Under the pieces are notes generated by a model that was given only the letters and a program-made list of their open reading frames with translations, made no database searches and had not been told where the DNA came from. Shown here one piece after another: positions 5,216 to 49,293 of a stretch of 64,000 nt of DNA. The DNA lies in the sequence record PP989838.1; one strand, given 5' to 3'. A program made the position numbers and the translations under genes. The stretch's first letter is position 1. Every line of letters begins with the position of its first letter. The DNA is from Escherichia phage VTCCBPA_211.

Positions 5216-5421
5216 TCACTAATATTTCAGAGTTTAAGAAAGCGCCATCTCGTTTGTTAGGTCGTCGTGTTATATATCTTTACAGCAATAAAGGTAAATG
5301 TACAACCGGACAAATTACAACGGTGAGTAGTACCAACAAAACATTACTAAAATTATGCGTAACTATGGATGATGGTACAATCCTGCTACGTAGTTGGAAG
5401 TCATTTAGTTTACTCGATTAA
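5212..5421 (+). CDS. hypothetical small protein
   Basis: ATGA overlap with upstream gene. Confidence 0.5.
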   Translation: MITNISEFKKAPSRLLGRRVIYLYSNKGKCTTGQITTVSSTNKTLLKLCVTMDDGTILLRSWKSFSLLD

Positions 5422-5490
5422 GTTATTTGTTCAAGCCTATCGCCTTGGTGGGCTTGCCCGATATAACTTATCACTGAAAGGAGTGAGATT

Positions 5491-5934
5491 ATGGCTAAAT
5501 CTAAAATCAGTATGAAGGGCGGGCGTTGTTTTTCTATCTCTGAACTGGAGAAAGAGAAGCCGAAGGCAACCAATTACATTAGTAAGCGCAGTTTAAAACG
5601 TCGTGCTGCAAAGGCTGAAGCTGAATCCTATATCCCTTCTAGTGTGGCAAAACGTGTAGGTCATCGCGTCCATCGTGCTGATGCGTTGTTGTTAGCTGAT
5701 CATAAACGTTCTTTGTTAAAGAGCGGGGGAGCTAAAACAGAAGAAGAGAAGAAATTAGAAATATTCTGTAATGGTCGCACCCGTGGTAAACAGAAGTTTA
5801 AGGGTAGCACGAAAGACCCTCAGGCTTTCCCTAAGACAAGCCAGTGTGCACCTGATGTTTTCTACGCAGACAGTAAACACAAGTGGGGCGTTGAAAAATA
5901 CATTGACCCTATCAAAGAGGCGAGGGTTAAGTAG
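5491..5934 (+). CDS. basic (Lys/Arg-rich) early protein, unknown function
   Basis: SD gaaaggag; 147 aa ORF. Confidence 0.6.
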   Translation: MAKSKISMKGGRCFSISELEKEKPKATNYISKRSLKRRAAKAEAESYIPSSVAKRVGHRVHRADALLLADHKRSLLKSGGAKTEEEKKLEIFCNGRTRGKQKFKGSTKDPQAFPKTSQCAPDVFYADSKHKWGVEKYIDPIKEARVK

Positions 5935-5947
5935 TAGGAATATATCC

Positions 5948-5979
5948 CCTCTTTTAGTACTATGACGCTCTTTCTGTAG
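5948..5979 (+). promoter_or_regulatory. conserved intergenic motif CCTCTTTTAGTACTATGACGC (copy 1; copy 2 at 11708-11740)
   Basis: Near-identical roughly 30-nt block immediately after stop codons at two loci. Confidence 0.35.
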
Positions 5980-6013
5980 CGTCGTGCCCTCTCCCCATTT
6001 GAAGCTTCCGCAT

Positions 6014-6037
6014 AGCCGCCTTTGAGCGGCTTTTTGC
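6014..6037 (+). terminator. putative intrinsic terminator
   Basis: agccgc...gcggct hairpin followed by ttttt. Confidence 0.45.
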
Positions 6038-6098
6038 GTTGCTGTAAGTGCATTTGCGAGTGTATTTATAGCAACGGTCATGTGTTGCTTTCAGGTTT

Positions 6099-6126
6099 GC
6101 CCCGGCTACGGCTGGGGCTTTTTTAT
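6099..6126 (+). terminator. intrinsic terminator
   Basis: gccccggc tacg gctggggc hairpin followed by tttttta. Confidence 0.6.
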
Positions 6127-6173
6127 GCCCGTAAAACAGGAGGTAGCAAGTTCTGATAACAACGGCACAGCTA

Positions 6174-6563
6174 ATGTTGACATTGACTATTTATTATGAG
6201 GCAGGGAATCAGCCAACCGCATGTAAAGCTATGGTTGCGGATACCGTGATAAATAGAATGGCCCAACGAAAACTGACCGCTGAACAGGTGATAAGACAAA
6301 AGAACCAGTTTGAGTGGATTCCGGTACTATTAAAACAGGAGAAACCTTATAAACGTTATGTAAAGCTGATTCGTGATAAAAATCCGATGACTAAGCAAGC
6401 CATTGGAGAAAGCGAGCGACTTGCTAAACGTGCCCTTAAGAAGAATTATGTTCCGCTGTACAGTGGGACTTACTTTCAGAGTAAGAGCGAAGGGGTGCCA
6501 AAATGGTATGCCAATCCCATGTATTGTGGTGATTTAGTGTTCGATAATAGCTCTAGGGAATAA
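6174..6563 (+). CDS. putative SleB-like cell-wall hydrolase domain protein
   Basis: Motifs EAGNQPTACKAMVADTVINRM and QKNQFEW resemble the SleB/Hydrolase_2 family (recollection). Confidence 0.45.
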   Translation: MLTLTIYYEAGNQPTACKAMVADTVINRMAQRKLTAEQVIRQKNQFEWIPVLLKQEKPYKRYVKLIRDKNPMTKQAIGESERLAKRALKKNYVPLYSGTYFQSKSEGVPKWYANPMYCGDLVFDNSSRE

Positions 6564-6762
6564 TCACTAGTGCCAGATTTGACAAACTAAATTCCTTTAT
6601 AAACCAACCACTTAGTAAATTTATTGAAAAAGATGGTAGTATTCTGGGACTATGAGTAATGCTCTGTATATAGACCCTTTGAAAATTTCTTAGAAAATAA
6701 GTTTACTAAATATAACTTACTTAAATAATATTACTTTTAATCTCTGATAAAGGGTAAATAAT

Positions 6763-7059
6763 ATGACTTTAGAAGTATATAAATTCCTTTTTGTAAGCTG
6801 TTTAACTATCAGCGTTATAGGATTTATTATCCTTAGAAACAAAGCAGCAAGCTGGGAGAGAATGTATAAATCCCTAGTCCGAGTGGATGAGATGTATAAT
6901 GAGAAAGTTAAAGTGACTCTTAACGATCTTATTATGCAAGTTGAAGACAGAAACAAACGTCTTCAGAACCTCAATCATGAAGTATTGCGCCTTGCTCGTG
7001 CTAATGAAGACTTGCGAGTGGCTATTGCTAAGCAGCAGGAGATTAACAGTGATAATTGA
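6763..7059 (+). CDS. membrane-anchored coiled-coil protein, unknown function
   Basis: N-terminal TM (FLFVSCLTISVIGFIIL) then helical region. Confidence 0.5.
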   Translation: MTLEVYKFLFVSCLTISVIGFIILRNKAASWERMYKSLVRVDEMYNEKVKVTLNDLIMQVEDRNKRLQNLNHEVLRLARANEDLRVAIAKQQEINSDN

Positions 7060-7060
7060 T

Positions 7061-7285
7061 ATGAACCATCCACCAAAGAAGTTAACTCTTGGGGATCTAG
7101 ATTCAGGTGATGTGTTCCAATTCTTTGTGAACTCTGATGATTTTTATATGGCTTCCTGTAGATTTAACAAATCGGATGGTTGTAGAAATTATATGAACCT
7201 TTCGAACGGTGTGATCTCAGCAGATCGTAATACTGTGGTTGTTAAGAAGATTAACAATGCTCGACTTACAGATAAGGTGGATTAA
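7061..7285 (+). CDS. small-protein paralog family A, member 1
   Basis: ATG 7061 right after upstream stop; motif LTLGDLDSGDVFQF shared with six other ORFs. Confidence 0.55.
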   Translation: MNHPPKKLTLGDLDSGDVFQFFVNSDDFYMASCRFNKSDGCRNYMNLSNGVISADRNTVVVKKINNARLTDKVD

Positions 7286-7287
7286 CA

Positions 7288-7524
7288 GTGAAAGTTAATA
7301 TTAAATCTGATCGTACAATGCTTCGATTAAATAACATGAAGCCGGGCGTTCTGTTTGAGCGTAAAGAGTCCCTTTATATTAGAACTGACACATTGTACGC
7401 AGATAACTATGTGAACTGTGTTGATGTGGTAACTGGAAAGCTAATGCCTATTAAACGAGATGAAGTCTGCCAAGTACGCAGTGATCTCCACATAACAAAC
7501 ATAGAGGCTAAAGATGAAGATTGA
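7288..7524 (+). CDS. small-protein paralog family A, member 2
   Basis: Tandem with 7061 and 7514 genes; similar size and motif layout. Confidence 0.5.
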   Translation: MKVNIKSDRTMLRLNNMKPGVLFERKESLYIRTDTLYADNYVNCVDVVTGKLMPIKRDEVCQVRSDLHITNIEAKDED

Positions 7525-7768
7525 TCTGAACCTTAAAGCTAAAGAATTGCGTGTGGGTGATTTGAAACTTGGTGATGTGTTCCAAGTTAAGGCAACATGT
7601 ATTGATTATTACATGATTGTTCAGCTATACACACCACATGTGTCAGAGACTGATCTTCGGAATGGTTGTGTAGTTCTTAGTTTAAGCACCAATCAAGTAA
7701 TGAAGCTAGATTCAAACTTACCTGTTTCAGTCATCCATGATGTAGTAATTACTAATAAAGAAAAGTAA
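7514..7768 (+). CDS. small-protein paralog family A, member 3
   Basis: LRVGDLKLGDVFQV motif. Confidence 0.55.
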   Translation: MKIDLNLKAKELRVGDLKLGDVFQVKATCIDYYMIVQLYTPHVSETDLRNGCVVLSLSTNQVMKLDSNLPVSVIHDVVITNKEK

Positions 7769-7776
7769 CATCGACT

Positions 7777-7880
7777 TATAGCCCTTGTGTTTATCAGAGG
7801 GCTATGTGAGGGTGTTCCTCATTAACTTATTAATTCAGGCATATGCCACACCGCTAGGGAGAGCTTGCTCGAACATCCGG
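7777..7880 (+). promoter_or_regulatory. conserved intergenic element (hairpin + GTGAG + GCTAGGG...AACATCCG), copy 1
   Basis: atagccct...agggctat hairpin at 7777-7805 then gctagggagagcttgctcgaacatccgg at 7853-7880; near-identical copy at 12041-12150. Confidence 0.4.
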
Positions 7881-8126
7881 TGTTAGACTAAAACCTGTTA
7901 ATTTTCGAAAGACTTTCTGATATGTAGGGGTACATATTGGTTTGGGATTCAGGAGACTTCCTAGGGGTAGGGAGTCTTCACCAGTTGGGATAAGAGATAG
8001 CTCTAGAACCTGAACTCTTAGGCAGAGAAGGTCGGCAATGAGTACGCGGTCAGAATTAGTCTACTGACTAGGGCTATCCCTTATATCAACTGGCAATAAT
8101 GCCTCCACTAACAAAGAGAGATAGAT

Positions 8127-8267
8127 ATGAAAGTATCAACCAAACGTATGAACCGCCCTGAACGTATGGATGCAGTAGCTAATGGTGCTCTGAAACTGGA
8201 AGGCTTCTGGATTCATGCGATGTCAGCCATCCGTAACAAGCAAGGCAATTGGACCTATGGTAACTAA
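8127..8267 (+). CDS. small ORF (46 aa), speculative
   Basis: SD aaagagag before ATG 8127. Confidence 0.3.
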   Translation: MKVSTKRMNRPERMDAVANGALKLEGFWIHAMSAIRNKQGNWTYGN

Positions 8268-8457
8268 CAAAGAACAAAAAGCTATCTGTCGTTGTGCTCC
8301 TTTCTTCTTTGCAGAAGACGGGGATGTGTTCAGTAAGCTTGCACAAGAGTTAGGTTGTTCTCGAACTGGTGCTAAGGTAGTCTTTCATAAGTGGCTTATC
8401 TATTCTGACTCTTACGTGGCTATCAAATTAAGAGAACTGCAAATACACACGCTTTGA
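8215..8457 (+). CDS. hypothetical small protein (start uncertain, possibly ATG 8257)
   Basis: ORF overlapping previous small ORF; contains GDVF like family A. Confidence 0.35.
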   Translation: MRCQPSVTSKAIGPMVTNKEQKAICRCAPFFFAEDGDVFSKLAQELGCSRTGAKVVFHKWLIYSDSYVAIKLRELQIHTL

Positions 8458-8538
8458 ATAAAAGGCTGCCCAATCGGGTGGCCTTTGTTGTTTTAATTAA
8501 GGGTCAGCTCTTACTTAAACTAACAAGAGGAAGCTCAA

Positions 8539-8715
8539 ATGTCTAAGCAAACAATCAAACATACGCAAGCTGGTTACTCTTATGTTAACTCTCCTTGTTG
8601 TGGCGCTCGTGTCAATATGGTTAAGGAAGAGGTTCGTATCGTTCAGCGTGGCGCTACTGTTGTTCGTTCATGCTGTGTCTGTGGTAATGATATTTTTATC
8701 AAAGGTAAAGTATGA
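8539..8715 (+). CDS. small zinc-ribbon-like protein (58 aa)
   Basis: SD aagagga; CC..., ...CCVC cysteine pairs; ATGA overlap with next gene. Confidence 0.45.
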   Translation: MSKQTIKHTQAGYSYVNSPCCGARVNMVKEEVRIVQRGATVVRSCCVCGNDIFIKGKV

Positions 8716-8963
8716 AAAACTTTCAAGCTGCACCAATTACTAAAGTGATTGCAGTTAATGATGTGATGATGGCTGTTCCTCTGAACACTCGTTACATTGC
8801 AATTGACAAGATGGGTTATGTATGGGCTTGGAAGATTAAGCCTAGCTATAACGCACTGTTTGATGAGTTTGTTTGTACTGGTACTTACAGTCCTACATTC
8901 TTGGGTTTGTTTAGTGAGTTTGATGGTCAGTATAAAATCATCACACTCCCTGCTTGTGCTTGA
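8712..8963 (+). CDS. hypothetical protein, paralog of 8971-9204
   Basis: YIAIDKMGYVWAWKIKP vs YLATDSNGEVYGFTHKPEI. Confidence 0.5.
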   Translation: MKNFQAAPITKVIAVNDVMMAVPLNTRYIAIDKMGYVWAWKIKPSYNALFDEFVCTGTYSPTFLGLFSEFDGQYKIITLPACA

Positions 8964-8970
8964 GGTTCTG

Positions 8971-9204
8971 ATGGAGACTAAAGAGGTTAAATATTTTGGT
9001 GAAGTTGTTAAAGTAGGTAACTCTATAAGATATTTAGCAACTGATAGCAACGGCGAAGTGTATGGCTTTACCCATAAGCCAGAAATTCGTGGATATGCTT
9101 GGGCACTCCCTTATGGAACTCCATTCGAGACTGGAGGAGCTGTTTATCTTAATGATAATGGACCTATGTTTGCATGGAAAACATCTCTCGTTGAGGTAGT
9201 GTAA
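8971..9204 (+). CDS. hypothetical protein, paralog of 8712-8963
   Basis: ATG 8971 in frame of the longer track ORF; shared motif with upstream gene. Confidence 0.5.
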   Translation: METKEVKYFGEVVKVGNSIRYLATDSNGEVYGFTHKPEIRGYAWALPYGTPFETGGAVYLNDNGPMFAWKTSLVEVV

Positions 9205-9206
9205 TT

Positions 9207-9371
9207 ATGTTCAAGTGGTTTAAACGTCTATTCCATCTGCACGATTGGGTAATCCTTGAAAAGTATACACTAAAGATCACTGATGATTATGGCGATACGA
9301 AACATAAAGGTTTACGCTACATCATGCAGTGTAAAACGTGTGGTCATATCACCAAGCGAGATATGATCTAA
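9207..9371 (+). CDS. small CxxC protein (54 aa), speculative
   Basis: ATG 9207 3 nt after upstream stop; CKTCGH. Confidence 0.35.
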   Translation: MFKWFKRLFHLHDWVILEKYTLKITDDYGDTKHKGLRYIMQCKTCGHITKRDMI

Positions 9372-9379
9372 ATAATTCT

Positions 9380-9456
9380 GCGCCCTTAGTTCAATTGGAC
9401 AGAACATCGGATTTCTAATCCGTCGGTTACAGGTTCGAATCCTGTAGGGTGCGCCA
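9380..9456 (+). tRNA. tRNA-Arg (anticodon UCU)
   Basis: Hand-folded cloverleaf: acceptor GCGCCCT/AGGGTGC, D-arm GTTC..GAAC, anticodon loop TTTCTAA, T-arm ACAGG TTCGAAT CCTGT, 3' CCA encoded. Confidence 0.8.
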
Positions 9457-9475
9457 AATCGAATAGGAGGTAGCC

Positions 9476-9775
9476 ATGAGTTGGGGTGGTGTAATATCCT
9501 TAATCTGTATCTTCCTTGTCTGCATAGCCCTTACAGGCTGCGTACAGAGCCGTCCTGATGGATGGTGTGCAGTAGCAGTGGATGGTATTTGTGTATCTCG
9601 CTGGCATAAGGGTGAGAAGATTCCTTCTGGTGAGATTAATATGCGCTGGAACGGAGCAACCTGTTCTAATGCTAACCCTTCTATCAACGAAGAGAAGTCT
9701 ACACCGGATAATGTTGTTATTGATACAGCATTGTGGTGTGGTGGCTCTACGATTACAACCGGTAAGGAGTGGTGA
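9476..9775 (+). CDS. lipoprotein (lipobox LTGC), possibly superinfection-exclusion-like
   Basis: SD aggaggt; signal peptide plus lipobox ALTG|C; Cys-rich mature part. Confidence 0.55.
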   Translation: MSWGGVISLICIFLVCIALTGCVQSRPDGWCAVAVDGICVSRWHKGEKIPSGEINMRWNGATCSNANPSINEEKSTPDNVVIDTALWCGGSTITTGKEW

Positions 9776-9776
9776 T

Positions 9777-9974
9777 ATGAATTACACATCTACAAAGGTG
9801 TTAATTGATTCAATTAATAGCTCCTCAGAAGCTGTACAGGAGCGTTTAATACAAGATGTTAGCAATGACATTAAGTTCTTTGTTAAACGACGCCTGTTAG
9901 GTTCTAAGGCTTATTACAGAGCTAAAGCAGAGCTTACAAAGAGGGTGTTTCTCTTACACGGATTAGTGTATTAA
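9777..9974 (+). CDS. hypothetical small protein
   Basis: ATG 9777 just after upstream stop, SD ggagtgg. Confidence 0.45.
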   Translation: MNYTSTKVLIDSINSSSEAVQERLIQDVSNDIKFFVKRRLLGSKAYYRAKAELTKRVFLLHGLVY

Positions 9975-10268
9975 GAGCTTATCGTGAAGGATTCTTACGA
10001 GAGTCCTTTGAGATAGGACTTCAGATCTCCTATCAAACTAACATTCATGTAACTAGCCCATAAGGGCGTTACCCTTTAATAACCCAGCCCACTAAGGGGG
10101 CGGGAGTTTAGTGCTGGATTGGCTTTACGCTTATCCCTACAAAGGCAACCGATTGTTAGATCTTACATGCAATATTAACTAATAGGATAAGGGAGGATTC
10201 GTCCCCTCCCCCTATTTATTGAATCTTTATCTAAGCAAGTCTTATATAAATGTTTAATTGGAGGGTAT

Positions 10269-10580
10269 ATGAAACCTGAAAGAATTAGATGGACTCCTGA
10301 AGTTATAAAACAGCTAGAAGTCTTGGTTAATAATTATTCTTTAGAAACAGTTGCAGATATTATGGAAACAAACAAATCAGTTATTAGCAGAGCCTGCTCT
10401 AGTTTCCAGATAAAACGTAAACGTCAAAGAAAAGTCTGGTCTGAAGAAGAAGATCAGTTCCTTATCCGTAATGCTGGGTTCATGCCCATTCAGAGAATGG
10501 CTGACATGCTCGGTAGAAGTTATGCTGCTGTACAGAACAGGGCATGTATGCACCTTAACATTAGCCTAAAACTTAAATAG
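10269..10580 (+). CDS. putative DNA-binding (HTH/Myb-like) protein
   Basis: W..EE.. motif and basic KRKRQRK stretch. Confidence 0.45.
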   Translation: MKPERIRWTPEVIKQLEVLVNNYSLETVADIMETNKSVISRACSSFQIKRKRQRKVWSEEEDQFLIRNAGFMPIQRMADMLGRSYAAVQNRACMHLNISLKLK

Positions 10581-10588
10581 GAGTCAAG

Positions 10589-10819
10589 ATGAATTTTGAA
10601 CTAGTACCAAAAAGCAAAACACCCTCCAAGACTTTCTCTGACTTGGAGAATGGAGATGTTTTTCGTTTTATTGGTGACGATGTAGTCCCTAAATTCTGGA
10701 TAAAAACAGGGGAACATTCTGCAATGTGTGTTCGGAACCCTAAAGATATTTTCTTTCCGGTCCCTTTGTCCAATACTGTTGATCTGTTCGAATCTAAACT
10801 TATTATTCAGGGTAAATAG
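10589..10819 (+). CDS. small-protein paralog family A, member 4
   Basis: TFSDLENGDVFRF motif. Confidence 0.55.
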   Translation: MNFELVPKSKTPSKTFSDLENGDVFRFIGDDVVPKFWIKTGEHSAMCVRNPKDIFFPVPLSNTVDLFESKLIIQGK

Positions 10820-10820
10820 T

Positions 10821-11069
10821 ATGAAGATTACTCACAAGAAAGAAGAAGTGACTACGGTTGATCTCAACTCCCTTCCCAGCGGAGCAGTATTTAAATTCCC
10901 TGAGAGTGCTACTCTCTATGTTAAAGGGTCTGTGTCTGAAAGTCCTCATGTAACCGTTAACTCTGATCGAGCAATTACCCTTCGTTTATCCGATGGTAAC
11001 GTAACAGCACCTTCTATCTGGTGCCGAGTTGTTCCTGTGTCGGCAGAACTTTTGGTGGATAACACATAA
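10821..11069 (+). CDS. small-protein paralog family A, member 5
   Basis: ATG 10821 immediately after upstream stop; LNSLPSGAVFKF. Confidence 0.55.
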   Translation: MKITHKKEEVTTVDLNSLPSGAVFKFPESATLYVKGSVSESPHVTVNSDRAITLRLSDGNVTAPSIWCRVVPVSAELLVDNT

Positions 11070-11314
11070 TGAAAATCATCCCAAAGAAAAAGGATAATAC
11101 GGTACGATTGGAAACAATCATTCCTGGAAATCCTTTCGTGGTTCAGAACGGAAGTGCTTCTCCTCAATATTACATGAGGGTTGAAAATGCTTCTTGTAAC
11201 ATCCGTATAGCCAGTGGTTGGGTTCCTGTGGTAAACCTTTTCACAGGTGTACTATCTGTTAAAGGTCTTGACGATCAGGTAGAAATGATTCGTATGTCTG
11301 TGGTTCAGGAGTAA
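11069..11314 (+). CDS. small-protein paralog family A, member 6
   Basis: RLETIIPGNPFVVQ. Confidence 0.5.
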   Translation: MKIIPKKKDNTVRLETIIPGNPFVVQNGSASPQYYMRVENASCNIRIASGWVPVVNLFTGVLSVKGLDDQVEMIRMSVVQE

Positions 11315-11321
11315 CAAGTAG

Positions 11322-11570
11322 ATGAGCACCATTAGTATTAAAGTTAAGCATAAGAAAGAGAACATCCTCAGGGTTATGGATTTATTCAGAGCCGACGTCT
11401 TTACTTTAAAACAGTGTCCAACTTCCCATACCTACATGCTAACGAACCCGAGCAATGGTCTTAAGCCCGCTGGGGCGGTTAATCTGGGAACTGGAGAACT
11501 TCGGACAATTGCTGGTGATATGGTTGTTGATGAGAAGTTTAGTAAAGTCGAAATGATCTTAACTCCTTAG
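11322..11570 (+). CDS. small-protein paralog family A, member 7
   Basis: RVMDLFRADVFTL. Confidence 0.5.
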   Translation: MSTISIKVKHKKENILRVMDLFRADVFTLKQCPTSHTYMLTNPSNGLKPAGAVNLGTGELRTIAGDMVVDEKFSKVEMILTP

Positions 11571-11801
11571 GAAAACAAATGAGACTTAAAGCATATTCTT
11601 ATGACGATATGATTAACCAAAAAGGCTTCGGTCAACGACAGCCTGATGGTTCAATTATCTGGTTCGTAAACGGACAGAAAAAGGTAGCTAAATAAGCCCT
11701 CTTCTCTCCTCCTTTTAGTACTATGACGCCTCTCTGTGGGCGGCCCAATTTGCGTAGGGAATTCCCTCTACGCAGCCATGACTTTTTAAGGAATTTCCCC
11801 T

Positions 11802-12035
11802 ATGTCTAAAGTAAGCGCAATTGATGCAATCCGTCAACCATTCCAGTTCCAATCTAAATCAACCCAAACCTTCAGTGAGCCTAAGCAAATTCGCTTGGGC
11901 GGCACAGAAAAAACTGTGTTTGATCTGGCTAAAAATAAGAGCGTTACCGTAGTTGATGGTGGCACTCTGGTTAACGTTTCCCATCGAATCCGAACTGGCA
12001 AAACTGCCAAAGATCGTGCTAAGAAAGGCGAGTAA
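11802..12035 (+). CDS. hypothetical protein
   Basis: ORF followed by the conserved hairpin element. Confidence 0.5.
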   Translation: MSKVSAIDAIRQPFQFQSKSTQTFSEPKQIRLGGTEKTVFDLAKNKSVTVVDGGTLVNVSHRIRTGKTAKDRAKKGE

Positions 12036-12040
12036 CGCCT

Positions 12041-12150
12041 ATAGCCTTCTTCGGAGGGCTATGTGAGTTATTCTGACTCAACTAACCTAATCTTAATATA
12101 TTTCCCGTATGGGGCCGATGCTAGGGCGAGGAGTGTTCCTCAAACATCCG
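12041..12150 (+). promoter_or_regulatory. conserved intergenic element, copy 2
   Basis: atagccttcttcggagggctat hairpin then gctagggcgaggagtgttcctcaaacatccg. Confidence 0.4.
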
Positions 12151-12217
12151 TCGGATAGATATTTTAAGAGCAGGTTATCCACAGATATTGGGTAATATCT
12201 TTTTGTATTTAAAGCTT

Positions 12218-12246
12218 GACTCTTTTCGGAGAGTCCTTTTTTAAAT
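12218..12246 (+). terminator. intrinsic terminator
   Basis: gactct...agagtc hairpin followed by cttttttaaatt. Confidence 0.55.
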
Positions 12247-12261
12247 TCAACGAGAGGAAAT

Positions 12262-12414
12262 ATGTCTAAATTAGATTTAAAACTGCTAGCAGCAGCGGTA
12301 GTGATTTGTGCACTAGCACTGGTAACGCAGAGAACATCTGGATTTATTCAGTGTTTCTTTTCTGGGCAATCCACTTATCAGTGGGTTATTGACGAGTGTA
12401 AACAACAGGAGTAA
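12262..12414 (+). CDS. small membrane/secreted peptide (50 aa), speculative
   Basis: SD gagagga; hydrophobic LLAAAVVICALALV. Confidence 0.35.
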   Translation: MSKLDLKLLAAAVVICALALVTQRTSGFIQCFFSGQSTYQWVIDECKQQE

Positions 12415-12416
12415 GT

Positions 12417-12779
12417 ATGAATACACGTCCCATCAAGGGCAACGTTAATATTGAAACTCTGAACAAGGTTGCATCAAACCTCGGTGGAATGTCCAACGAT
12501 GAGCTTGAGCAAGAACTTGCTTGGATTGCAAATGGTATCAAAGTTGCTAAAGGTAAGATTGCTCGTGAGCAAAGCAACATGAAAGCTCACAAGTATATCA
12601 TCCGTCGTGCAAATGTGTTACCAGAGCGGGTTGTACATCTTGCCCGTAAAAACTACGCAGAAGCAAAGAAAGCTCTGGAAGAAGCTACTTTCCAGAAGCA
12701 CCAATTTATGAACAACTATCGAAACTTCCGAGATATTCTTTATATCCGTAAGTCGATTGAGTTGATTAAAAACCAATAG
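12417..12779 (+). CDS. hypothetical protein, first gene of the ligase operon
   Basis: ATG 2 nt after upstream stop. Confidence 0.55.
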   Translation: MNTRPIKGNVNIETLNKVASNLGGMSNDELEQELAWIANGIKVAKGKIAREQSNMKAHKYIIRRANVLPERVVHLARKNYAEAKKALEEATFQKHQFMNNYRNFRDILYIRKSIELIKNQ

Positions 12780-12790
12780 AGGTTGGTATA

Positions 12791-14966: not shown

Positions 14967-15765
14967 GCGCAAATTCCTTATTGGGAGCGATCCCGAGATG
15001 TTCGTTCGTACCAGCAATGGCATTATCACCTCTGTAGCTGGTCTGTTAGGTTGTTCTAAGGACGATAAGATCACTCTGGCTAAGGATGTACGTCTTCAAG
15101 AGGACAATGTACTGGCTGAGTTTGATATCGACCCACAGAGCGGTTTTGACGCGTTTAATGATAACATGCAACGTGGTATTGATCTTACCAATAATGTCCT
15201 GAACAAACTGGACATGGAAGCAGCTCCGGGTGTTAGCTCTCACATCTTCACTGAAGAAGAGATGAAGACTTTCAATGAATCAGCGTTCATCTTCGGGTGT
15301 ACTCCTGATTTCAACGCTTTCACTGGTCAGAAGAATCCATCCCCGACTTCTCAGAATAAGGGACTTCGTACTGCCGGTGGTCACGTACATCTTGGCGTGG
15401 TTGGTGCTTTGGATATCACTCTGCAAACTCAGATGATGCTTGGTGTGCTGTGTGACTACTTCCTGTCTCTCCCAGCAGTGATTATGGACAAAGATACTCG
15501 CCGTAAAGAACTCTATGGCAAAGCATCTGCAATCCGCTATAAAGACTACGGTATCGAATACCGTTCACTGTCTAACTTCTGGATTAGCGATCGTGAAAAC
15601 CGTAAGTTTGTTTACGATCAGGTTGACAAGGTTGTTCAGCAGTGTGATATGTCCACTCTGATGGCATTGCACTCTCGCCTTCCGATTGAGAAGCTTCATG
15701 AAATCATTAACGGGAACAATGTTAAAGAAGCTGACCAGCAGATCAAACTCCTTCAGGTAGCATAA
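14959..15765 (+). CDS. putative GS/GCS2-like amidoligase (carboxylate-amine ligase), paralog 1
   Basis: Motifs GSDPEMF, GGHVHLG, GIEYRS fit the E-x-E / H-V-H / E-x-R pattern of YbdK-like ligases (pattern level only). Confidence 0.5.
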   Translation: MTKRKFLIGSDPEMFVRTSNGIITSVAGLLGCSKDDKITLAKDVRLQEDNVLAEFDIDPQSGFDAFNDNMQRGIDLTNNVLNKLDMEAAPGVSSHIFTEEEMKTFNESAFIFGCTPDFNAFTGQKNPSPTSQNKGLRTAGGHVHLGVVGALDITLQTQMMLGVLCDYFLSLPAVIMDKDTRRKELYGKASAIRYKDYGIEYRSLSNFWISDRENRKFVYDQVDKVVQQCDMSTLMALHSRLPIEKLHEIINGNNVKEADQQIKLLQVA

Positions 15766-15774
15766 GAGGTTATC

Positions 15775-16392
15775 GTGAGCTTAGTATCTGATTTTTCTCA
15801 TTACTATAATGGTACATGGATTGCTAAACGAGCAGGTAATATCAACCTTCCGTGTTTTGTGATTGGTGTTGAGCAGAGCGGTAACTTCCGCAGCGATGAC
15901 TTCTCGCATGAAGCAGAGCAGGCTCTGTATTTTGTTGTAGAGCAGTGGTACAAGAACGAGCATGGGAATCTCCGAAACACTACAATGAATATTCCAGTGT
16001 TCGACCCAACCTTGATTCTTGAATCACCTGACGTTGGTTATCTGTTTCACAACGGTAATACTGTAAGCTGGACTCATATTAACCCTGTTCGTCAGAGAGC
16101 GAAGGGTTTGATGGGTAACAAGATTCGAAACGCTCCGGGGATTGGTCGTTCGATCTCTGGTGAAATGGTTTACAGTCTGTTCAATCCTGAATTCGAAGGA
16201 TTGGTTACTCGTTATATTTACATCAACCCTACGGATGGTAAGGTGCATTATAAAGGTGCACTGGTAGGACAAGTAGATCTGGAAGCGCCTCGTGACTCTT
16301 ACGGTCAGCAATCAATGCGACTTCTGGAACACTTTCATCATATTTCTGAAAACCTTAGCAATTACAATATTACGTTGGTGGATTCGTTATGA
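15775..16392 (+). CDS. operon protein of unknown function (205 aa)
   Basis: GTG start with SD aagaggt; ATGA overlap with next gene. Confidence 0.6.
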   Translation: MSLVSDFSHYYNGTWIAKRAGNINLPCFVIGVEQSGNFRSDDFSHEAEQALYFVVEQWYKNEHGNLRNTTMNIPVFDPTLILESPDVGYLFHNGNTVSWTHINPVRQRAKGLMGNKIRNAPGIGRSISGEMVYSLFNPEFEGLVTRYIYINPTDGKVHYKGALVGQVDLEAPRDSYGQQSMRLLEHFHHISENLSNYNITLVDSL

Positions 16393-17492
16393 CAACTGTA
16401 GCGCAAACTTTTGGATATCGAGAAGGTCGTTTAACTGAGGAGCATAGTTCAATTGCACTTCAGTGCGGTGTCGGTATTGAACTTGAACTCGAAGGTTCCG
16501 ATCATATCGAAGCAGATATGTGGGATTGTACAGAGGATGGTTCCCTGCGTAATGGTTGTGAAATGGTATGTTCACGACCTTACAATGGACAGGAGTTGTT
16601 AGACGCTATCAACAACCTGAGTGAAGCAGTAGCTGAATCGCACGCCGAGGGGACTTGGCGTTGCTCTACTCACGTTCATATGGATATGAGGGATGCTGAT
16701 AGTAATATCCTCAAGAAAACCATTCTCGCTTGGACCTTCTATGAAAAGATGTTGTTCAAGTGTTCAGGCTATCATCGTTACCGTAGCAACTTCTGCCCTG
16801 CTTTTGCAGTGGTACAAGCACAGGTAATGAATGCCTCTGATGCATTTAACTACGATGGTGAAGAGTTCTTCAACCGTCTGGTGCGTTCATGGGATAAGTA
16901 TACATCCCTGAACCTTCTGCCACTTGCCCAATACGGTTCGATTGAGTTCCGTATCAGTGAGCCTAAGTGGAAACGTGGTCAACTTCTCAATCTGGTTAAC
17001 CGCTTCTTGATGTTGAAGAAGCTGGCTTTAGATAACGCAGATATGAGCAATGATCAGTTTATTGAGCACTTAAATACTGTACGATTCGCCCCAATGCTTC
17101 CTTATCTTCCTCTAGATTACAATCTGGATGAATCTGATTTGCATTCAGGGTATTGTATGGCCCGTGATGTTTTGTATTGCCGTTCTCATGAAGTAGAACA
17201 GTCTGGTCGTATTCGTTTACGTAGAACTAACTCCAACGGAGATGTTCTTGTTGACTTACGTCTTATGTCAGACTTCTATGGATTCCTTGGGTATGTCCGA
17301 GGGAACGCTAACAACTTGTACCAAGAGATTTTGGTTATGCTTCGTACAGCAGACCTATCTCAAGTAAGACACGCTCCAGAGCAACGTATTCGTGCTATTT
17401 TTGACTTACTACGTGAGTCAGGTCATAGTGATAGCAATATCACAGGGTACATTCCAGATCATCTGGAAAATCAGTTAGAGCAAGCGCTGTAA
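16389..17492 (+). CDS. putative GS/GCS2-like amidoligase, paralog 2
   Basis: GVGIELELEG, STHVHMD, GSIEFRIS motifs resemble YbdK/GCS2 carboxylate-amine ligases. Confidence 0.6.
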   Translation: MTTVAQTFGYREGRLTEEHSSIALQCGVGIELELEGSDHIEADMWDCTEDGSLRNGCEMVCSRPYNGQELLDAINNLSEAVAESHAEGTWRCSTHVHMDMRDADSNILKKTILAWTFYEKMLFKCSGYHRYRSNFCPAFAVVQAQVMNASDAFNYDGEEFFNRLVRSWDKYTSLNLLPLAQYGSIEFRISEPKWKRGQLLNLVNRFLMLKKLALDNADMSNDQFIEHLNTVRFAPMLPYLPLDYNLDESDLHSGYCMARDVLYCRSHEVEQSGRIRLRRTNSNGDVLVDLRLMSDFYGFLGYVRGNANNLYQEILVMLRTADLSQVRHAPEQRIRAIFDLLRESGHSDSNITGYIPDHLENQLEQAL

Positions 17493-33117: not shown

Positions 33118-33126
33118 TAATGTATA
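33118..33126 (+). promoter_or_regulatory. TAATGTATA motif, candidate phage-sigma-dependent promoter element
   Basis: Exact TAATGTATA(CT) about 37 nt upstream of ATG 33163; same 9-mer at 39661 and on - strand at 49285. Confidence 0.4.
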
Positions 33127-33162: not shown

Positions 33163-33486
33163 ATGGCAGATCATGTAGGAAAGAGAGATTATGCACAAGA
33201 AAGACGTACCGCAATTGCCCGTGGTGAAACAGGCGTTGGGAGCAAGAGCGGAGATGCTCAGCGCCACCGTGCACGTCGCATCGTTGAAAAGCGCGATGGA
33301 AAAGCTGCTGTCAGAGGTAAAGATGTTGGACACAAACGAGCCATCAAGTCAGGAGGCTCTAATGCGTCAAGCAACTTACGTGTTGAAACAGTCAGCGGAA
33401 ATCGTTCAGCTGGCGGCAAAAGTGGAGATCGAGCTGGGAAGGCAGCTGGTGCTGCTAAGCGAAAAGGAGCTTTAAGCTCATCGTAA
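33163..33486 (+). CDS. highly basic Gly/Lys/Arg-rich protein, unknown function
   Basis: Strong SD aaggag; RNY codon periodicity favours this frame over overlapping 33191 ORF; terminator follows. Confidence 0.55.
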   Translation: MADHVGKRDYAQERRTAIARGETGVGSKSGDAQRHRARRIVEKRDGKAAVRGKDVGHKRAIKSGGSNASSNLRVETVSGNRSAGGKSGDRAGKAAGAAKRKGALSSS

Positions 33487-33490
33487 TATA

Positions 33491-33520
33491 AGGCTACCCA
33501 AATGGGTGGCCTTTTCTTTT
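33491..33520 (+). terminator. intrinsic terminator
   Basis: aggctaccc...gggtggcct hairpin followed by tttcttttat. Confidence 0.6.
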
Positions 33521-43770: not shown

Positions 43771-43950
43771 ATGGGTAAATTTGATTATCGTTCATATGAT
43801 GAAAACTCCTCCAATCGTGAATCTCGTAAAGACCAAAAAATCAAGCATCAACTGTTTGATCAGCGTACTGGTCGTATCCCTCGTGAGGGGAAAGTGAGTC
43901 ATCGTGTAAACAAACGAGTTTGGGAAGAAGCTGATTATGGCGAAGTCTGA
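43771..43950 (+). CDS. small ORF (59 aa)
   Basis: ATG 43771; stop overlaps next start. Confidence 0.4.
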   Translation: MGKFDYRSYDENSSNRESRKDQKIKHQLFDQRTGRIPREGKVSHRVNKRVWEEADYGEV

Positions 43951-44335
43951 GAAGACTCGTTGTAGTGGAATGTGGACTGAAGCTCGTTACAACTCTTTCA
44001 TCAAGTCAGGGATTCGCTCTCTGACTAGAAAGTGGAAGCCCATGTTCGATGCACTAGCAGACGCCAAGACAGAGCAGAAGGTTAATCCAAAGACAGGCAG
44101 ACTGGCAATGCACTTTAAGTGTGCCATGTGTGGTTCTGACCACCCTGTAAAGGATATGGCTATTGACCACATAGAGCCTATAGTTCCTCTTGACCATGAA
44201 GCAACTTGGGATGAAATCATCTCTCGTGCTCTGTGTGAGAAAGAAGGTTTTCAGGTTCTGTGTAAAGACCCTTGTCATAAGATTAAAACTAAGATGGAAA
44301 ATGATGCAAGAAAACAATTCAAAAAAGGAAATTAG
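43937..44335 (+). CDS. HNH nuclease
   Basis: CAMCG...AIDHIEPI...CKDPCH motifs. Confidence 0.65.
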   Translation: MAKSEKTRCSGMWTEARYNSFIKSGIRSLTRKWKPMFDALADAKTEQKVNPKTGRLAMHFKCAMCGSDHPVKDMAIDHIEPIVPLDHEATWDEIISRALCEKEGFQVLCKDPCHKIKTKMENDARKQFKKGN

Positions 44336-44665: not shown

Positions 44666-47600
44666 TCACTCCTTAGGTCGAACTCTTACACGGAGTCTCG
44701 ATTGACGCTTACTGCGTTCAAGCTTCTCTGACAATGAGCCACGTTTAATCTTCGGCTTCCCTTCGTCATTAAACTTCTCCAAGAACTTCAAGTACTCAGT
44801 ACGATTCGTTGTCTTGTAAGAAGGAATCTTAACATCAGGGTTCTCTTCGATTACACGTCTCATCTTCGCTACATCATCCCTACCAAGCAACTTACTCTTA
44901 GCCTGTTCAGCTGTAGAACCAAAGATCTTCTCCAGTGCCCTAGATTTGTTACCACCTGCGGAAGAAGCACCAAGTTTAGCAATGGCAGAGTAATCATCAG
45001 CACTAAACCAAGCTACTGGATTATCACCATACTTCTTCTTGTTTTCAGCAGCAGTCTGCAATGCACGCACAAAGCGACGGTTGTTACCAGCCTTATCTGC
45101 ACCATGAACCCTGTCTAAAACTTCAGCCACACTAGCCAACTCATCCAAGCTCTTCCCACTCAAGAAAGCTTTCTCTACTTTATCAGCAAAGACCTCTTCT
45201 TGTTGTTTAATGCTTTCCAAGATATCAGAATTTGCTTGAGATTTTTCATCATCAGGCAGAGCAGAACGAATCTTCTCCATCTCCAACTCTTCCTCTTGCA
45301 GTTTCTTAATATCAGAGTCAACCTTCTGAGCCTCCTCAACAGCCTTCCTAGTATCCGAATCCAAGTTATCAAGCTTACCTTCAGTATTTCCAGTAACCTT
45401 AACAATCTCTTTCTCGATAGGAGTCATTGATTCGTACTTCTTAGCGAACTTCTCAACATCAGCTTCGATACGAGAGCGAGCATTCTGATGTTCAGTCGGA
45501 GTCATAGGCTTCTCAAGAAGTGCATAACGGTTATCCATATAGGAACCAGCAAACGCTTCAGCATCCTCTCTAGATATGCCCTTATCTTCCATAGTACGCA
45601 TCAGGCGGCGATGAATGTCATCACGTTGACGTTGTACTGCCATAAGGTCATTCTCACGCTCTTGGGCCGCTTTAAGCTCTTCACTGCGCTTAACTCTCTT
45701 GTCCACATCAAACTTACGGTTCATCTCTTCCGCTTGCTCATACATCTTGTTCCACTTAGCCTGACGAGCATCTTCCTCTGCATCAGTTAAACGACGCTGA
45801 CGATCAAGGTAATCTGACTCGGCGTTGTGGATACGTTCAATATAACTACGGAACTTCTCTGGAGGAACTGGAGAGTTCTTATCGTGGTGAGCAGCCAACT
45901 GTTTCAGTGTACGAGATTCCTGAGCCTTACGAACAGGTTTAGGTAAACCTTCCATCATCTTCTCAATCTCACTCTTCTGAGCTGCAATAGCCTCTAGAGT
46001 TTTACGTTCATTCTCAACAGCAGCTTTAGCATCCGAACGAGCCTGAGCCTTTTTCCTGAGTGTAGCAAGACGTTCTTCACGAGCCTGTAAATGCTTAGCA
46101 GCAGCTTCGTACTGAGAGTTCTTGTTAGCTTTGTTGAAGGCATTCACTTCTCTGTTATAGGTGTTAATAAACCCATCCCAAATATCCTTCATCTGACCAA
46201 CTTCCAAAGCCTCTTCCCTACCAGCCTTCTCTGAAGATTTAAACTTTCCATCTACAAAGTCATTCATCAATTTACGCATAGCGTCTTTCTGAGCAGGACG
46301 TAAAGGTTCTGCATCAATCAAAGTATCAATCTCAGACTGAAGCTCTTTCTTCTGGTCAACCAGCTTAGGAGCATTCTTGTTATCGAAAGCTTTATTCTCT
46401 TCTAGAGCTTGTTGGTACAGTCTATCAAACTCATCTTCACGCTGCTTCTGATACAACCTTTCAGCACGACGTTTCAGACTATCCAAGTTAGTTACGTTCC
46501 CACCTAAACCTTTCTCTTCAGCACGTAATGCCTTAGTAGCAATGTCTTCTGGCAGACCACGTTCTTTAACCCATTCAGCAAAGTTAGTTCGTACAGTGTT
46601 GTTCTTAGCAGTAGCAATACCTTGCTGAGAAGCCAGCTGGTTACGAGCCATCTCTTCATGACGTTCAGTGTTGATAGCATTATCTTCCCGACGAATACGC
46701 CGCATCAACTCCAAAGGGTCTCCCTTGTAAGCCAAGAAGTTTTCAGCAGTAGCTTTAGCTTTAGCAGCCTTAGAGTATAAAGATTTAGCAAAACGTGTTG
46801 CACGATCTTTAGCAACTTGACGAGCAGTGCTTGACATAGCAGCTAGGAATTCTACACCACTTTCCGGTTTAACATCCTGTACAGCTTCCTGAGGAGCTTT
46901 AGGGGAACGGGTAGGTAATGGATCAGCTTGTCTTAGAGAACTAGCTTTGACCATATCATTTGAGTCAACCAAATTATGGTTACGCAAAAACTGTTGCTCA
47001 GCCGGGGTGAACTGATTTAGGCGAAGGGCAATGTTGCCATTTAAATCTTGAGAAAGTATCCCATCTTCAGCATAGTGAGAGAGAGATTCTTTAGTAACAG
47101 AAGATGCATCCTCTGATGAAGCCTTTTGGCCCTCTTCTTGAGCACGTTGCTGCTCTGTTGCACGGCGCTCCTCTAAAGGATTACGAGCAGGAAGAGGTTC
47201 AGCCTGTGGAGCTTGTTCAACAGGAGCTTCTTGAGCAGCCAATGCCTCTTCTTCAGCGCGACGCTGTTCAGCCTGACGGATAGCACGTCTTTGAGCAACT
47301 AAATCACGAGCCGTAAGAGGGGCTTCTTGAGGAGCAGAAGAAGGAAGATTTTCTTCCGTCACAGTACTAGAAGAAGGCTCCCGAACCGGTTCGGTTTCCA
47401 CGTCATTTTGCGTCTTAAAATTAATGTCATCAACAGCTGGTTCTTCTTCCATCTTAGTGCGAGCTTCATCAGCAGCGGATTTAGCACGAGCAACTTCCAA
47501 ATCACCACGAGCTAGAGAGCGGATAGCTTCACTGTTAGATTCTTGTTGCTTAACACGTTGAGAGCGAGCACGCTGAGAAGAGAAGCGATTCAGAGCATAT

Positions 47601-49246
47601 TTAGCAGCACCAAGAGTGTTCATTACCAGACTAGGTGAAGAAGCCTCACGGAAGCCATCATCAGTCAGGGAAGTCCAGCCACGATCTTGGTTGCTCATGA
47701 ATTTAGCTGTATTGTTCAGAGTGTAAGCATCTTGGATAGGATTAAAACCTTCAGGCATACCTTTCAGTTTCTTCAACCCACCAATAGCTTTCTTCATCTC
47801 TGGAGAAACATTATCAGCCATCTTCTGTAGTTCAGCAGCTTTCTCTACAAAGTTATTAAAGTCTTCACCATCACGAGCTTTGAATCGATTTGCTTCATTA
47901 TAGAAAGTCTTGTAAGCATCAATGAAATCACGGTCAGCTTGTGTGCGATTCTTAACGTCAAGTGGACTACCGGTGAAGTGCCCAGATGCTCTAAGAGAAG
48001 TTAATTCACGATCTAGGTTGTCTAGAACATCTGTAAGGGCTTTCGTGTTGTCTTTGGTGTAATCAGCCATTGCATCCTTCATAGCAACAGCCTGCTTCTG
48101 GTTGTGCTCGTTATCAGCGAATGCTTTACCACGAGTCTTAGCAGGAGAAGCTAAAGGGTTGAGGCCCGGAATGTTGGAATGTTCTTTCTGAACGGAAGCA
48201 GCTTTCTCAGCACGAGCTTGGTCAGTATTAAGAATACGCTGAGCAGCAGGAGAATCTACAGCAACAGCATCTGTAATACGGAATCCATTCTCATCTAGAA
48301 GGTTCAGAGCAGAAGCAGCGTTAGCAGTTTCAGCTTTAGAGTAAGCCTCTTTCAGCTCATCAATATTCTTAGCACTACGAATCAGTTCATCATCAGCAGC
48401 AATATCAGTCTTCGCATACTCTGGAGTGTTCCTGAAGACAGCAGAATCCGGACGGCTAATCAAACCATGAACCCCACCAACTGCACCACCAAATGCAGCA
48501 CCCATAGCTCCTTCTTCGATAACACCTTCCAATGTCTTAGCTAGATCATTGTCATCACCATACTTGTTCTGCGCTTCAGCAGCACCTATAAGAGCTCCGC
48601 CCTTAGCACCAGCCACTGCGTTAGTAGCAACGTTCTGACCAATACGTCCAAGTGTGGACTCAGCTGTACCAACAGCACCCGGAAGGATTCTCATAGCCGC
48701 GTAGTTAGCACCACCAACTAAAGCTGCATCTAGAATAGACTTATCTTCTCCCTCTTCAGGGGTTTGGTCTGCATACGCACGACCTGTCTCACGACCTGCG
48801 ATGATAGCAGCAGCCGCCAATGGGTTAGCAACAGTCATGCCGATATCACCAGCAACGCCAGCATACTGACCAACAGTTTTACCAATCCCATCCTCAATCT
48901 TATCCATACGTTCTTTCAGAAGGTTCTGAGAGTTCTCTTGGATACGCTTACCATAACTAGTTTGTGCTCCAGCTAGATTCTCACCAATCTCAACTAAACC
49001 ACCAATACCTTTAGCAGCACTAGCTGCGATGTTTGCACCACCAGATTGAAGAGCATTTGACACACCTTGAGCAAACTCACCTATAGCACCACGTTCTTCT
49101 TGTTGTGGTTGTGCTGCTGGTTGTTCCTCAGGAATAGAGCCACCTGCTGCCTTATATTGTTCTCTCATTTGAGCCTGCTGCTCTGGAGAGGCATTCAGAT
49201 ACGCAGGAGCTTTGGAAGCTTCTTCCCACGGTTTAATGTTAGCCAT
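44666..49246 (-). CDS. large virion protein (internal/ejection or tape-measure-like), 1526 aa from ATG 49246
   Basis: Gly/Ala-rich N-terminal third then long coiled-coil-like region; SD aaggag before ATG 49246-49244. Confidence 0.7.
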   Translation of the reverse strand: MANIKPWEEASKAPAYLNASPEQQAQMREQYKAAGGSIPEEQPAAQPQQEERGAIGEFAQGVSNALQSGGANIAASAAKGIGGLVEIGENLAGAQTSYGKRIQENSQNLLKERMDKIEDGIGKTVGQYAGVAGDIGMTVANPLAAAAIIAGRETGRAYADQTPEEGEDKSILDAALVGGANYAAMRILPGAVGTAESTLGRIGQNVATNAVAGAKGGALIGAAEAQNKYGDDNDLAKTLEGVIEEGAMGAAFGGAVGGVHGLISRPDSAVFRNTPEYAKTDIAADDELIRSAKNIDELKEAYSKAETANAASALNLLDENGFRITDAVAVDSPAAQRILNTDQARAEKAASVQKEHSNIPGLNPLASPAKTRGKAFADNEHNQKQAVAMKDAMADYTKDNTKALTDVLDNLDRELTSLRASGHFTGSPLDVKNRTQADRDFIDAYKTFYNEANRFKARDGEDFNNFVEKAAELQKMADNVSPEMKKAIGGLKKLKGMPEGFNPIQDAYTLNNTAKFMSNQDRGWTSLTDDGFREASSPSLVMNTLGAAKYALNRFSSQRARSQRVKQQESNSEAIRSLARGDLEVARAKSAADEARTKMEEEPAVDDINFKTQNDVETEPVREPSSSTVTEENLPSSAPQEAPLTARDLVAQRRAIRQAEQRRAEEEALAAQEAPVEQAPQAEPLPARNPLEERRATEQQRAQEEGQKASSEDASSVTKESLSHYAEDGILSQDLNGNIALRLNQFTPAEQQFLRNHNLVDSNDMVKASSLRQADPLPTRSPKAPQEAVQDVKPESGVEFLAAMSSTARQVAKDRATRFAKSLYSKAAKAKATAENFLAYKGDPLELMRRIRREDNAINTERHEEMARNQLASQQGIATAKNNTVRTNFAEWVKERGLPEDIATKALRAEEKGLGGNVTNLDSLKRRAERLYQKQREDEFDRLYQQALEENKAFDNKNAPKLVDQKKELQSEIDTLIDAEPLRPAQKDAMRKLMNDFVDGKFKSSEKAGREEALEVGQMKDIWDGFINTYNREVNAFNKANKNSQYEAAAKHLQAREERLATLRKKAQARSDAKAAVENERKTLEAIAAQKSEIEKMMEGLPKPVRKAQESRTLKQLAAHHDKNSPVPPEKFRSYIERIHNAESDYLDRQRRLTDAEEDARQAKWNKMYEQAEEMNRKFDVDKRVKRSEELKAAQERENDLMAVQRQRDDIHRRLMRTMEDKGISREDAEAFAGSYMDNRYALLEKPMTPTEHQNARSRIEADVEKFAKKYESMTPIEKEIVKVTGNTEGKLDNLDSDTRKAVEEAQKVDSDIKKLQEEELEMEKIRSALPDDEKSQANSDILESIKQQEEVFADKVEKAFLSGKSLDELASVAEVLDRVHGADKAGNNRRFVRALQTAAENKKKYGDNPVAWFSADDYSAIAKLGASSAGGNKSRALEKIFGSTAEQAKSKLLGRDDVAKMRRVIEENPDVKIPSYKTTNRTEYLKFLEKFNDEGKPKIKRGSLSEKLERSKRQSRLRVRVRPKE

Positions 49247-49284
49247 AACGTCTCCTTTTATAAATAAAAATGTCCTACCCCCTA

Positions 49285-49293
49285 TATACATTA
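49285..49293 (-). promoter_or_regulatory. TAATGTATA motif upstream of large virion gene
   Basis: - strand TAATGTATA about 39 nt upstream of ATG 49246. Confidence 0.4.

Follow-up and report, generated by a model that had tools for sequence, protein, structure and literature searches.

The DNA analysed here, referred to throughout as the window, is a 64,000-nucleotide stretch of Escherichia phage VTCCBPA_211 (PP989838.1), a phiEco32-like coliphage of the genus Kuravirus. A megablast search with positions 5000–13000 returned 110 phage records, nearly all of them Escherichia phages, with the best matches, phiEco32 among them, at ~93% identity. Early and middle genes occupy the first ~44.5 kb and are oriented on the + strand; the late genes past that point are on the − strand. 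Two intergenic stretches on the + strand carry copies of a short motif: one follows the phi32_120 homologue (5491..5934), the other lies between the homologues of phi32_94 (11579..11695) and phi32_93 (11802..12035). A first-pass annotation had described these copies as near-identical blocks of ~30 nucleotides (nt) with a palindromic AGTACT core, each succeeded by hairpin/T-run terminators, and had proposed a protein-binding or cleavage site. In the following we describe the motif, its conservation and its relation to the DNA nick sites of the Pseudomonas phages tf and LUZ24.

Three copies of an asymmetric motif

The positions of the two blocks, after the genes ending at 5934 and 11695, were correct, but the blocks are shorter than described. 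The exact repeat is the 18-nt sequence CTTTTAGTACTATGACGC, found on the + strand at 5951–5968 (site 1, 14 nt past the stop codon of the phi32_120 homologue) and at 11712–11729 (site 2). Both sites read CTTTTAG-TACTATGAC-GC, with the core TACTATGAC at 5958–5966 and 11719–11727, respectively. Upstream, a CCTC tract can be aligned between the two sites with a 1-nt indel. Past the final GACGC, only scattered pyrimidines and a CTGT are in common, which leaves a shared block of ~22 nt.

A genome-wide motif search, one of the checks suggested in the first-pass annotation, revealed a third copy that had been missed. When the window was searched with the 17-mer, allowing up to three mismatches, three matches were found versus 0.13 expected, and none of 100 shuffles reached this number. 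The additional match is located at 47356–47372 on the − strand, within a late open reading frame (ORF) of 1541 amino acids (44666..49291), the phi32_26 homologue. This site 3 (47356..47373, − strand; CTTCTAGTACTGTGACG at 47373–47357) reads CTTCTAG-TACTGTGAC-GG. Its core runs from 47366 to 47358 and lies in a Pro/Ser/Ala/Glu-rich linker, where the codons specify ..S S T V T E... The 13-mer TAGTACTRTGACG is exact in all three sites, and the 17-mer CTTYTAGTACTRTGACG is common to them if pyrimidine/purine choices are allowed. Sites 1, 2 and 3 also account for every occurrence of TACTRTGMC in the window. Two are on the + strand and one on the − strand, each on the sense (non-template) strand of its own transcription arm. 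The proposed tie of the motif to gene ends and terminators does not extend to the third copy, which sits mid-gene in late coding sequence on the opposite strand.

To compare the motif between genera, we used the complete genomes of phiEco32, KBNP1711 (Nieuwekanaalvirus) and SU7 (Suseptimavirus). IMG/VR scans yielded only 3–4 relevant contigs, and annotated GenBank phage genomes were used instead. TACTRTGMC occurs exactly three times in each of these genomes, and the positions are orthologous throughout: one copy follows the phi32_120 homologue, a second lies between the homologues of phi32_94 and phi32_93, and a third is located within the phi32_26 homologue. The strand relationship is also the same. 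In the alignments, TACTRTGACG is intact amid diverged, indel-bearing flanks; around site 3, for example, KBNP1711 has ~74% identity. Among five site 1 sequences, the R position was the only variable base of the 18-mer. It is G in phiEco32, whose site 1 ortholog has the core TACTGTGAC.

The four bases just upstream of the core are concordant within a genome and differ between genera: Kuravirus has TAG, and the other genera have AAC, AGC or TAC. Because these bases are genus-specific, the AGTACT palindrome, which had been taken as the core, is incidental, and the conserved unit is the asymmetric TACTRTGACG. A palindromic operator or restriction-type site was rejected accordingly: KBNP1711 and SU7 have CAAC-TACT, TAAC-TACT or CTAC-TACT, with the dyad lost and the core kept. 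Since the upstream bases change in concert within a genome, they argue for a single trans-acting factor that would read all three sites.

Constraint can also be seen at site 3. In 10 genomes from three genera, the codons xxT ACT GTG ACG GAA are constant, while the neighbouring codons vary and include indels. The residue before the core is Ser, Ala or Thr, and its codon always ends in T. Because silent codon positions are kept within a variable linker, the constraint at site 3 acts on the DNA, beyond the protein alone. We have high confidence that the motif is genuine and that it functions at the level of DNA.

Relation to the mapped nick sites of tf and LUZ24

In virion DNA of the Pseudomonas phage tf, 14 ligatable single-strand interruptions have been mapped, with the consensus 5'-TACT/RTGMC-3' (Glukhov et al. 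2012, PMC3517423). For LUZ24 and PaP3, the form chiefly predicted is TACTATGAC (PMC3517423). In phage Rembedalsseter, WACTRTGAC has been tied to breaks detected by nanopore sequencing (Dougherty et al. 2025, PMC11780129). The same study reports that 61 related Pseudomonas phages are enriched for the motif, and in related phages it is mostly intragenic (PMC11780129). In phage phikF77, nicks are reported to be repaired early and to reappear late (PMC3517423).

The three cores in the window (TACTATGAC twice, TACTGTGAC once) all fit 5'-TACT/RTGMC-3'. The agreement extends one base further, with a G directly 3' of the core at all three window sites, at 8 of 9 sites in LUZ24 and at 12 of the 14 in tf, whose nick positions are annotated in its sequence record. 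The two groups of phages also share much of their gene content. BLASTP of phiEco32 ORFs against those of LUZ24 and tf identified ~20 core proteins in common. These include the large terminase, portal, scaffold, capsid and tail proteins, a 5'-3' exonuclease, the DNA polymerase with a separate 3'-5' exonuclease subunit, the primase-helicase, and an amidoligase / ATP-grasp / amidotransferase cluster; the amidoligase-replication module is syntenic. The window phage and tf/LUZ24 are thus of common ancestry.

The motif in the window therefore resembles the tf/LUZ24 nick site in its 9-nt core, which is identical down to the A/G choice at position 5, in the following G, in its asymmetry, and in occurring in phages with the same genome layout and core genes. 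It differs in number and placement: 9–14 sites on one strand there, three per genome on both strands in Kuravirus, each on the local sense strand. In Kuravirus, moreover, the conserved context is longer (17 nt), the positions are fixed across genera, and the nicks are predicted. More remote parallels are found in T5/BF23 (consensus about R/GCGCRGG) and in phiKMV-like phages (CGACxxxxxCCTA/CTCCGG), which likewise have strand-specific consensus breaks in virion DNA (PMC3517423), although their consensus sequences and lineages are unrelated.

More distant relatives show related patterns. Salmonella phage 7-11 has 13 sites versus 2.35 expected (P ~1e-6). Twelve of the 13 share a strand, the sense strand of the early/middle arm, and the early region contains a cluster of seven. 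The core is followed by G at 12 sites, and the flanks take the form aC-TACTGTGAC-G. At position 83744 of this genome, the ATG inside the motif is an annotated gene start codon, as at several tf nick sites. In Escherichia phage PJNS034, nine sites were found, all on one strand and all of the form acTACTRTGACg, with the G at 9/9. Aeromonas phage LAh_9 has no canonical site. Its top over-represented 9-mer is ACTACGGTG (10 observed vs 0.17 expected), part of a motif TTAC-TACGGTGAC(G) that is one base from the nick consensus and lies on the sense strand of each arm. One copy falls in the homologue of the giant late gene. Across the supergroup, the site is mostly TACTRTGACG, with TACGGTGACG in LAh_9, and the base at −1 is G in Kuravirus versus C in the sister genera. 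No such motif was found in Citrobacter phage CVT22, which is more remotely related and shares the amidoligase module. Its most over-represented 9-mers are of the TGGAGAATGA type (14 copies), a fixed layout of Shine-Dalgarno sequence plus start codon that is reused by many genes.

We consider it rather probable that the motif represents, in Kuravirus, the tf/LUZ24 site for site-specific DNA nicking, or 'localized single-strand interruption'. As the core equals the mapped tf nick consensus, a single-strand DNA nick is likely, as opposed to an RNA cut. The earlier proposal of a cleavage site recognised by a protein thus probably holds, on a different basis and for a different molecule. In the mechanism that we propose, the phage would encode a nicking endonuclease that is produced in the middle or late phase and reads the asymmetric CTTYTAG-TACTRTGAC-G (family core TACTRTGACG). 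The cut would be confined to the motif-bearing strand and fall between TACT and RTGAC. Packaged DNA would accordingly have three nicks at fixed positions, predicted at T5961/A5962 (site 1) and T11722/A11723 (site 2) on the sense strand of the early genes, and at T47363/G47362 (site 3) on the opposite strand. Each cut strand would be the non-template strand of local transcription. Such a placement would spare the transcribed strand; that this is the selective reason for it is speculation. Three such fixed nicks would suggest a role (in ejection, packaging or recombination, for example) that depends on position and not on density alone.

Site-specific nicks in phage genomes, such as those of T5, phiKMV and tf/LUZ24, have been known for decades. 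What would be new here is the extension of a known kind of feature, the tf/LUZ24 nick site, to a new and experimentally convenient group of phages. If the prediction is correct, the tf-type system extends to well-studied coliphages (phiEco32 and ~100 sequenced relatives) and to phages like 7-11, PJNS034 and LAh_9. The purpose of nicks in phage genomes, a question of ~50 years' standing, could then be addressed in a tractable E. coli model. Kuravirus would also be a minimal case, with three fixed sites that can each be mutated silently and one small candidate gene. There is also a practical side, since nicks distort strand-specific coverage and read ends in phage genome sequencing and may influence recombination in, or engineering of, therapeutic Kuravirus phages.

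A small HNH-like protein as candidate nickase

A candidate for the nicking enzyme is the phi32_58 homologue (33163..33486, + strand), which encodes an HNH-like protein of 107 amino acids. At 61–62% identity to ORFs of LUZ24 and tf, it ranks top among the shared proteins (25–47% for the others). It belongs to a family of ~100-residue proteins that some sources name HNH endonuclease or McrA. The alignment of the family shows invariant H57, N67, N71-L72 and N80 in the pattern D-x-x-H...GG-x-N...NL...N, and an invariant N-terminal RGETG-x-GS-x-SGDA-x-RHRARR. The Pfam HNH profile matches 16 of 22 members weakly, below threshold, and HNH_3 matches are likewise below threshold. An AlphaFold (AF2) model, with a predicted local distance difference test score (pLDDT) of 68, has a beta-beta-alpha arrangement at residues 54–82. 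Nearly all Foldseek matches to it were HNH nucleases, the best being the Gme HNH nicking endonuclease, and none was significant (best E = 0.83). With its length of ~100 amino acids and a putative D-H...N...N beta-beta-alpha core, the candidate resembles small HNH nicking endonucleases such as Gme HNH (PDB 4h9d) and N.phiGamma of phage Gamma. The RGETGxGSxSGDAxRHRARR segment, in contrast, is particular to the family of the candidate.

In the phage collection, the family was found in 246 records, comprising LUZ24-like Pseudomonas phages and the Escherichia, Salmonella, Proteus, Cronobacter, Aeromonas and few Vibrio members of the supergroup. No homologue was seen in this collection outside the LUZ24 / phiEco32 / 7-11 supergroup, and a tblastn search of the motif-free CVT22 detected none.

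Directly upstream of the candidate gene, at 33118..33126 (+ strand), lies TAATGTATA, a middle/late promoter element of the type used by the phage sigma factor gp36. A gp36 promoter has been reported upstream of gene 58 in phiEco32 (PMC4331800). This arrangement fits middle or late expression of the candidate. A terminator-like hairpin at 33485–33523 directly follows the gene, which thus appears to be a self-contained unit of promoter, gene and terminator. That the 107-residue protein is the nickase is a reasoned guess. The window contains a second HNH protein (43937..44335, phrog_3106), which we ranked below the small HNH because it has no detectable LUZ24/tf homologue. A wider proposal, which we hold more tentatively than the nick-site assignment itself, is that the minimal ~100-residue HNH protein (the phi32_58 / LUZ24 'gp26-frame' family) is the tf/LUZ24 nickase and has co-evolved with a 10–17-nt asymmetric site across the podophage supergroup, with Kuravirus pared to three fixed nicks on non-template strands.

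In LUZ24 (15622–15933) and tf (16129–16416), the small HNH-like ORF lies in another frame than the annotated genes gp26 (15668..15937) and tf_29 (16115..16429), whose records state 'contains transmembrane domain/region'. The window likewise has two overlapping open frames, at 33163–33486 and 33191–33475. Either the LUZ24/tf annotation is in the wrong frame or two frames are coding.

Alternative explanations and neighbouring signals

We infer from the DNA sequence that Kuravirus genomes are actually nicked, and several observations weigh against this conclusion or against the enzyme assigned to it. In the searchable literature, we found no physical evidence that any Kuravirus is nicked. The sites are few and on both strands (2 + 1), whereas those of tf/LUZ24 are all on one strand. 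Three sites are also close to the chance expectation of about 1.9–2.3 in the window, phiEco32, KBNP1711 and SU7, so that there is no over-representation; the case for Kuravirus rests on orthology, flanks, silent-site conservation and the family-wide pattern, not on number. Core variants with a single mismatch occur at 0.5–0.67 of expectation, a weak effect that corresponds to the 3rd–11th percentile of permuted motifs, and avoidance of near-cognate sequences was at best suggestive after this calibration. As for the enzyme, the structural matches fall short of significance, and the link between HNH protein and motif is confounded by shared ancestry. In a study of phage YF01, full-length nanopore reads were recovered from a ligation-kit preparation (PMC9965538). 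Such preparations normally include a step in which nicks are repaired, and these reads therefore neither support nor refute nicking.

Conservation of the sites identifies a reader more readily than an activity. Orthology, silent-site conservation and concerted flanks point to a sequence-specific reader and leave its chemistry aside, and a phage protein that binds double-stranded DNA without nicking it could account for them, with the site acting, for example, as a signal for replication or priming, a checkpoint in packaging or ejection, or a roadblock to transcription. The placement of three sites per genome on both strands, versus 9–14 on one strand in tf/LUZ24, is also in line with such a binding site. 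We nevertheless consider this unlikely, as nicks in tf have been mapped to this very core and the breaks in Rembedalsseter are tied to it, these phages are related to Kuravirus, and neither an alternative binding protein nor an origin function is documented for the sequence. Less likely again is a sequence that has no function itself, either a recombination or mosaic junction or a remnant of an intergenic cassette that was duplicated. In several relatives similarity begins at or just before the motif (query positions 8–18), and different genes are inserted on either side, a 57-residue ORF in Paul and Ptacy1479 and phi32_119 in phiEco32. A functionless sequence would not be expected to persist at three orthologous places in three genera amid diverging flanks, to be kept at silent codon positions, or to be enriched with strand bias in 7-11 and PJNS034, and we regard this explanation as very improbable. 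Recombination at the site may instead be a consequence of nicking.

Between these two in plausibility, and in our view improbable, is a signal on early transcripts, that is, a processing, stability or termination element such as an RNase site or a pyrimidine tract that pairs with the downstream ribosome-binding site. Each site in the window lies on the sense strand of transcription, and sites 1 and 2 lie just past stop codons and are followed by hairpins, a setting they share with intrinsic terminators and with T7-type RNase III sites between early genes. At two sites of the sister genera (SU7 site 1 and KBNP1711 site 2), a hairpin with a T run behind it has GACGC as its 5' arm. In the window, UCCUU at site 2 is paired in the minimum-energy fold with AAGGA of the following gene. 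The fold around this site, however, is no better than those of shuffled sequences (z = −0.9). Site 3 is mid-gene in a late ORF, and some tf/LUZ24 sites are antisense to local genes, both of which speak against RNA as the level at which all copies act. Pairing of the CCUCC tract as an anti-Shine-Dalgarno sequence was rejected, as it occurs only in that minimum-energy fold and the tract is absent at SU7 site 1. The motif itself, unlike an intrinsic terminator, is neither a GC-rich hairpin nor directly followed by a U run, and one copy is in coding sequence. RNase III cleavage, an earlier suggestion, fails on the structure of the RNA: the stems next to the motif are of 5–6 base pairs, short of the long duplex of ~20 base pairs that the enzyme needs, and are not maintained in relatives. 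Taken as a whole, an explanation at the RNA level, whether as terminator or as RNase III site, has poor support.

The hairpins themselves are best described as neighbours of the motif. A small inverted repeat, GACGCT-N8-AGCGTC (5964..5983, + strand), has its 5' arm in the 3' end of site 1 and is probably a separate or accessory feature outside the conserved core. In Paul, Ptacy1479 and KBNP1711, the 3' arm at site 1 carries changes that the 5' arm does not compensate, and no hairpin is present after the motif at site 1 of KBNP1711. A conserved RNA hairpin at this position was rejected accordingly. Further downstream are two intrinsic-terminator-like hairpins with T runs (6014–6031 and 6099–6118, + strand), of which the first is conserved in KBNP1711 and SU7. 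The real terminators thus sit 50–140 nt downstream of site 1, and the hairpins at 6014–6118 are neighbouring transcription signals outside the motif. Site 2 is followed by hairpins at 11727–11742 and ~11751–11775. A terminator scan called none at the motif itself and none after site 2, so that the terminators first ascribed to both blocks are borne out at site 1, while site 2 has hairpins only. Among close relatives, the intergenic stretches are 97–100% identical; constraint is evident, and because of this identity there is no covariation from which a model could be built.

Other known signals were considered and rejected. TACTAT could serve as a −10 element of a sigma-70 promoter, but there is no acceptable −35 element and no scan match at the sites. 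No match resembling TAATGTATA, the gp36 promoter element (tAATGTAtA), was found at site 1 or site 2. A sequence similar to boxA of lambda nut, CGCTCTTT, follows site 1; it is missing at site 2 and is not conserved in relatives. No Rfam family matches the motif, and the sole Rfam match in the window is a tRNA at 9380–9453.

The region after site 1 (5935–6173 in the window) is a mosaic junction when compared with phiEco32 (1930–2940), Paul and Ptacy1479. In phiEco32, ~770 extra bases lie past the second terminator and contain phi32_118 and phi32_119 ('adhesin/tail protein'). For phi32_119, the start as annotated overlaps the conserved hairpin/terminator region and may be placed too far upstream. 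The 57-residue ORF of Paul and Ptacy1479 precedes the motif, and its annotated stop codon is the TAG inside it. In the window, a strong AGGAGG at 6139–6144 lies ~30 nt 5' of the ATG (6174) of a cell-wall-hydrolase-like gene (6174..6563), too distant to be its ribosome-binding site.

Elsewhere in the window, two near-consensus sigma-70-type promoters (TTGACA-17-CATAAT at 2360–2388 and TTGACG-17-CATAAT at 2815–2843) lie in a long non-coding stretch and are probably the strong early promoters described for phiEco32-like phages. Exact copies of TAATGTATA also occur at 2253–2261 (+), 39589–39597 (−), 39661–39669 (+) and 49285–49293 (−). Those near 39.6 kb form a divergent pair, and the copy at 49285–49293 is at the start of the giant late gene that holds site 3. 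The terminator-like hairpin AATAAAAGGCTGCCCAATCGGGTGGCCTTT is present twice, at 8457–8495 and, after the small HNH gene, at 33485–33523, and the two copies are 79% identical.

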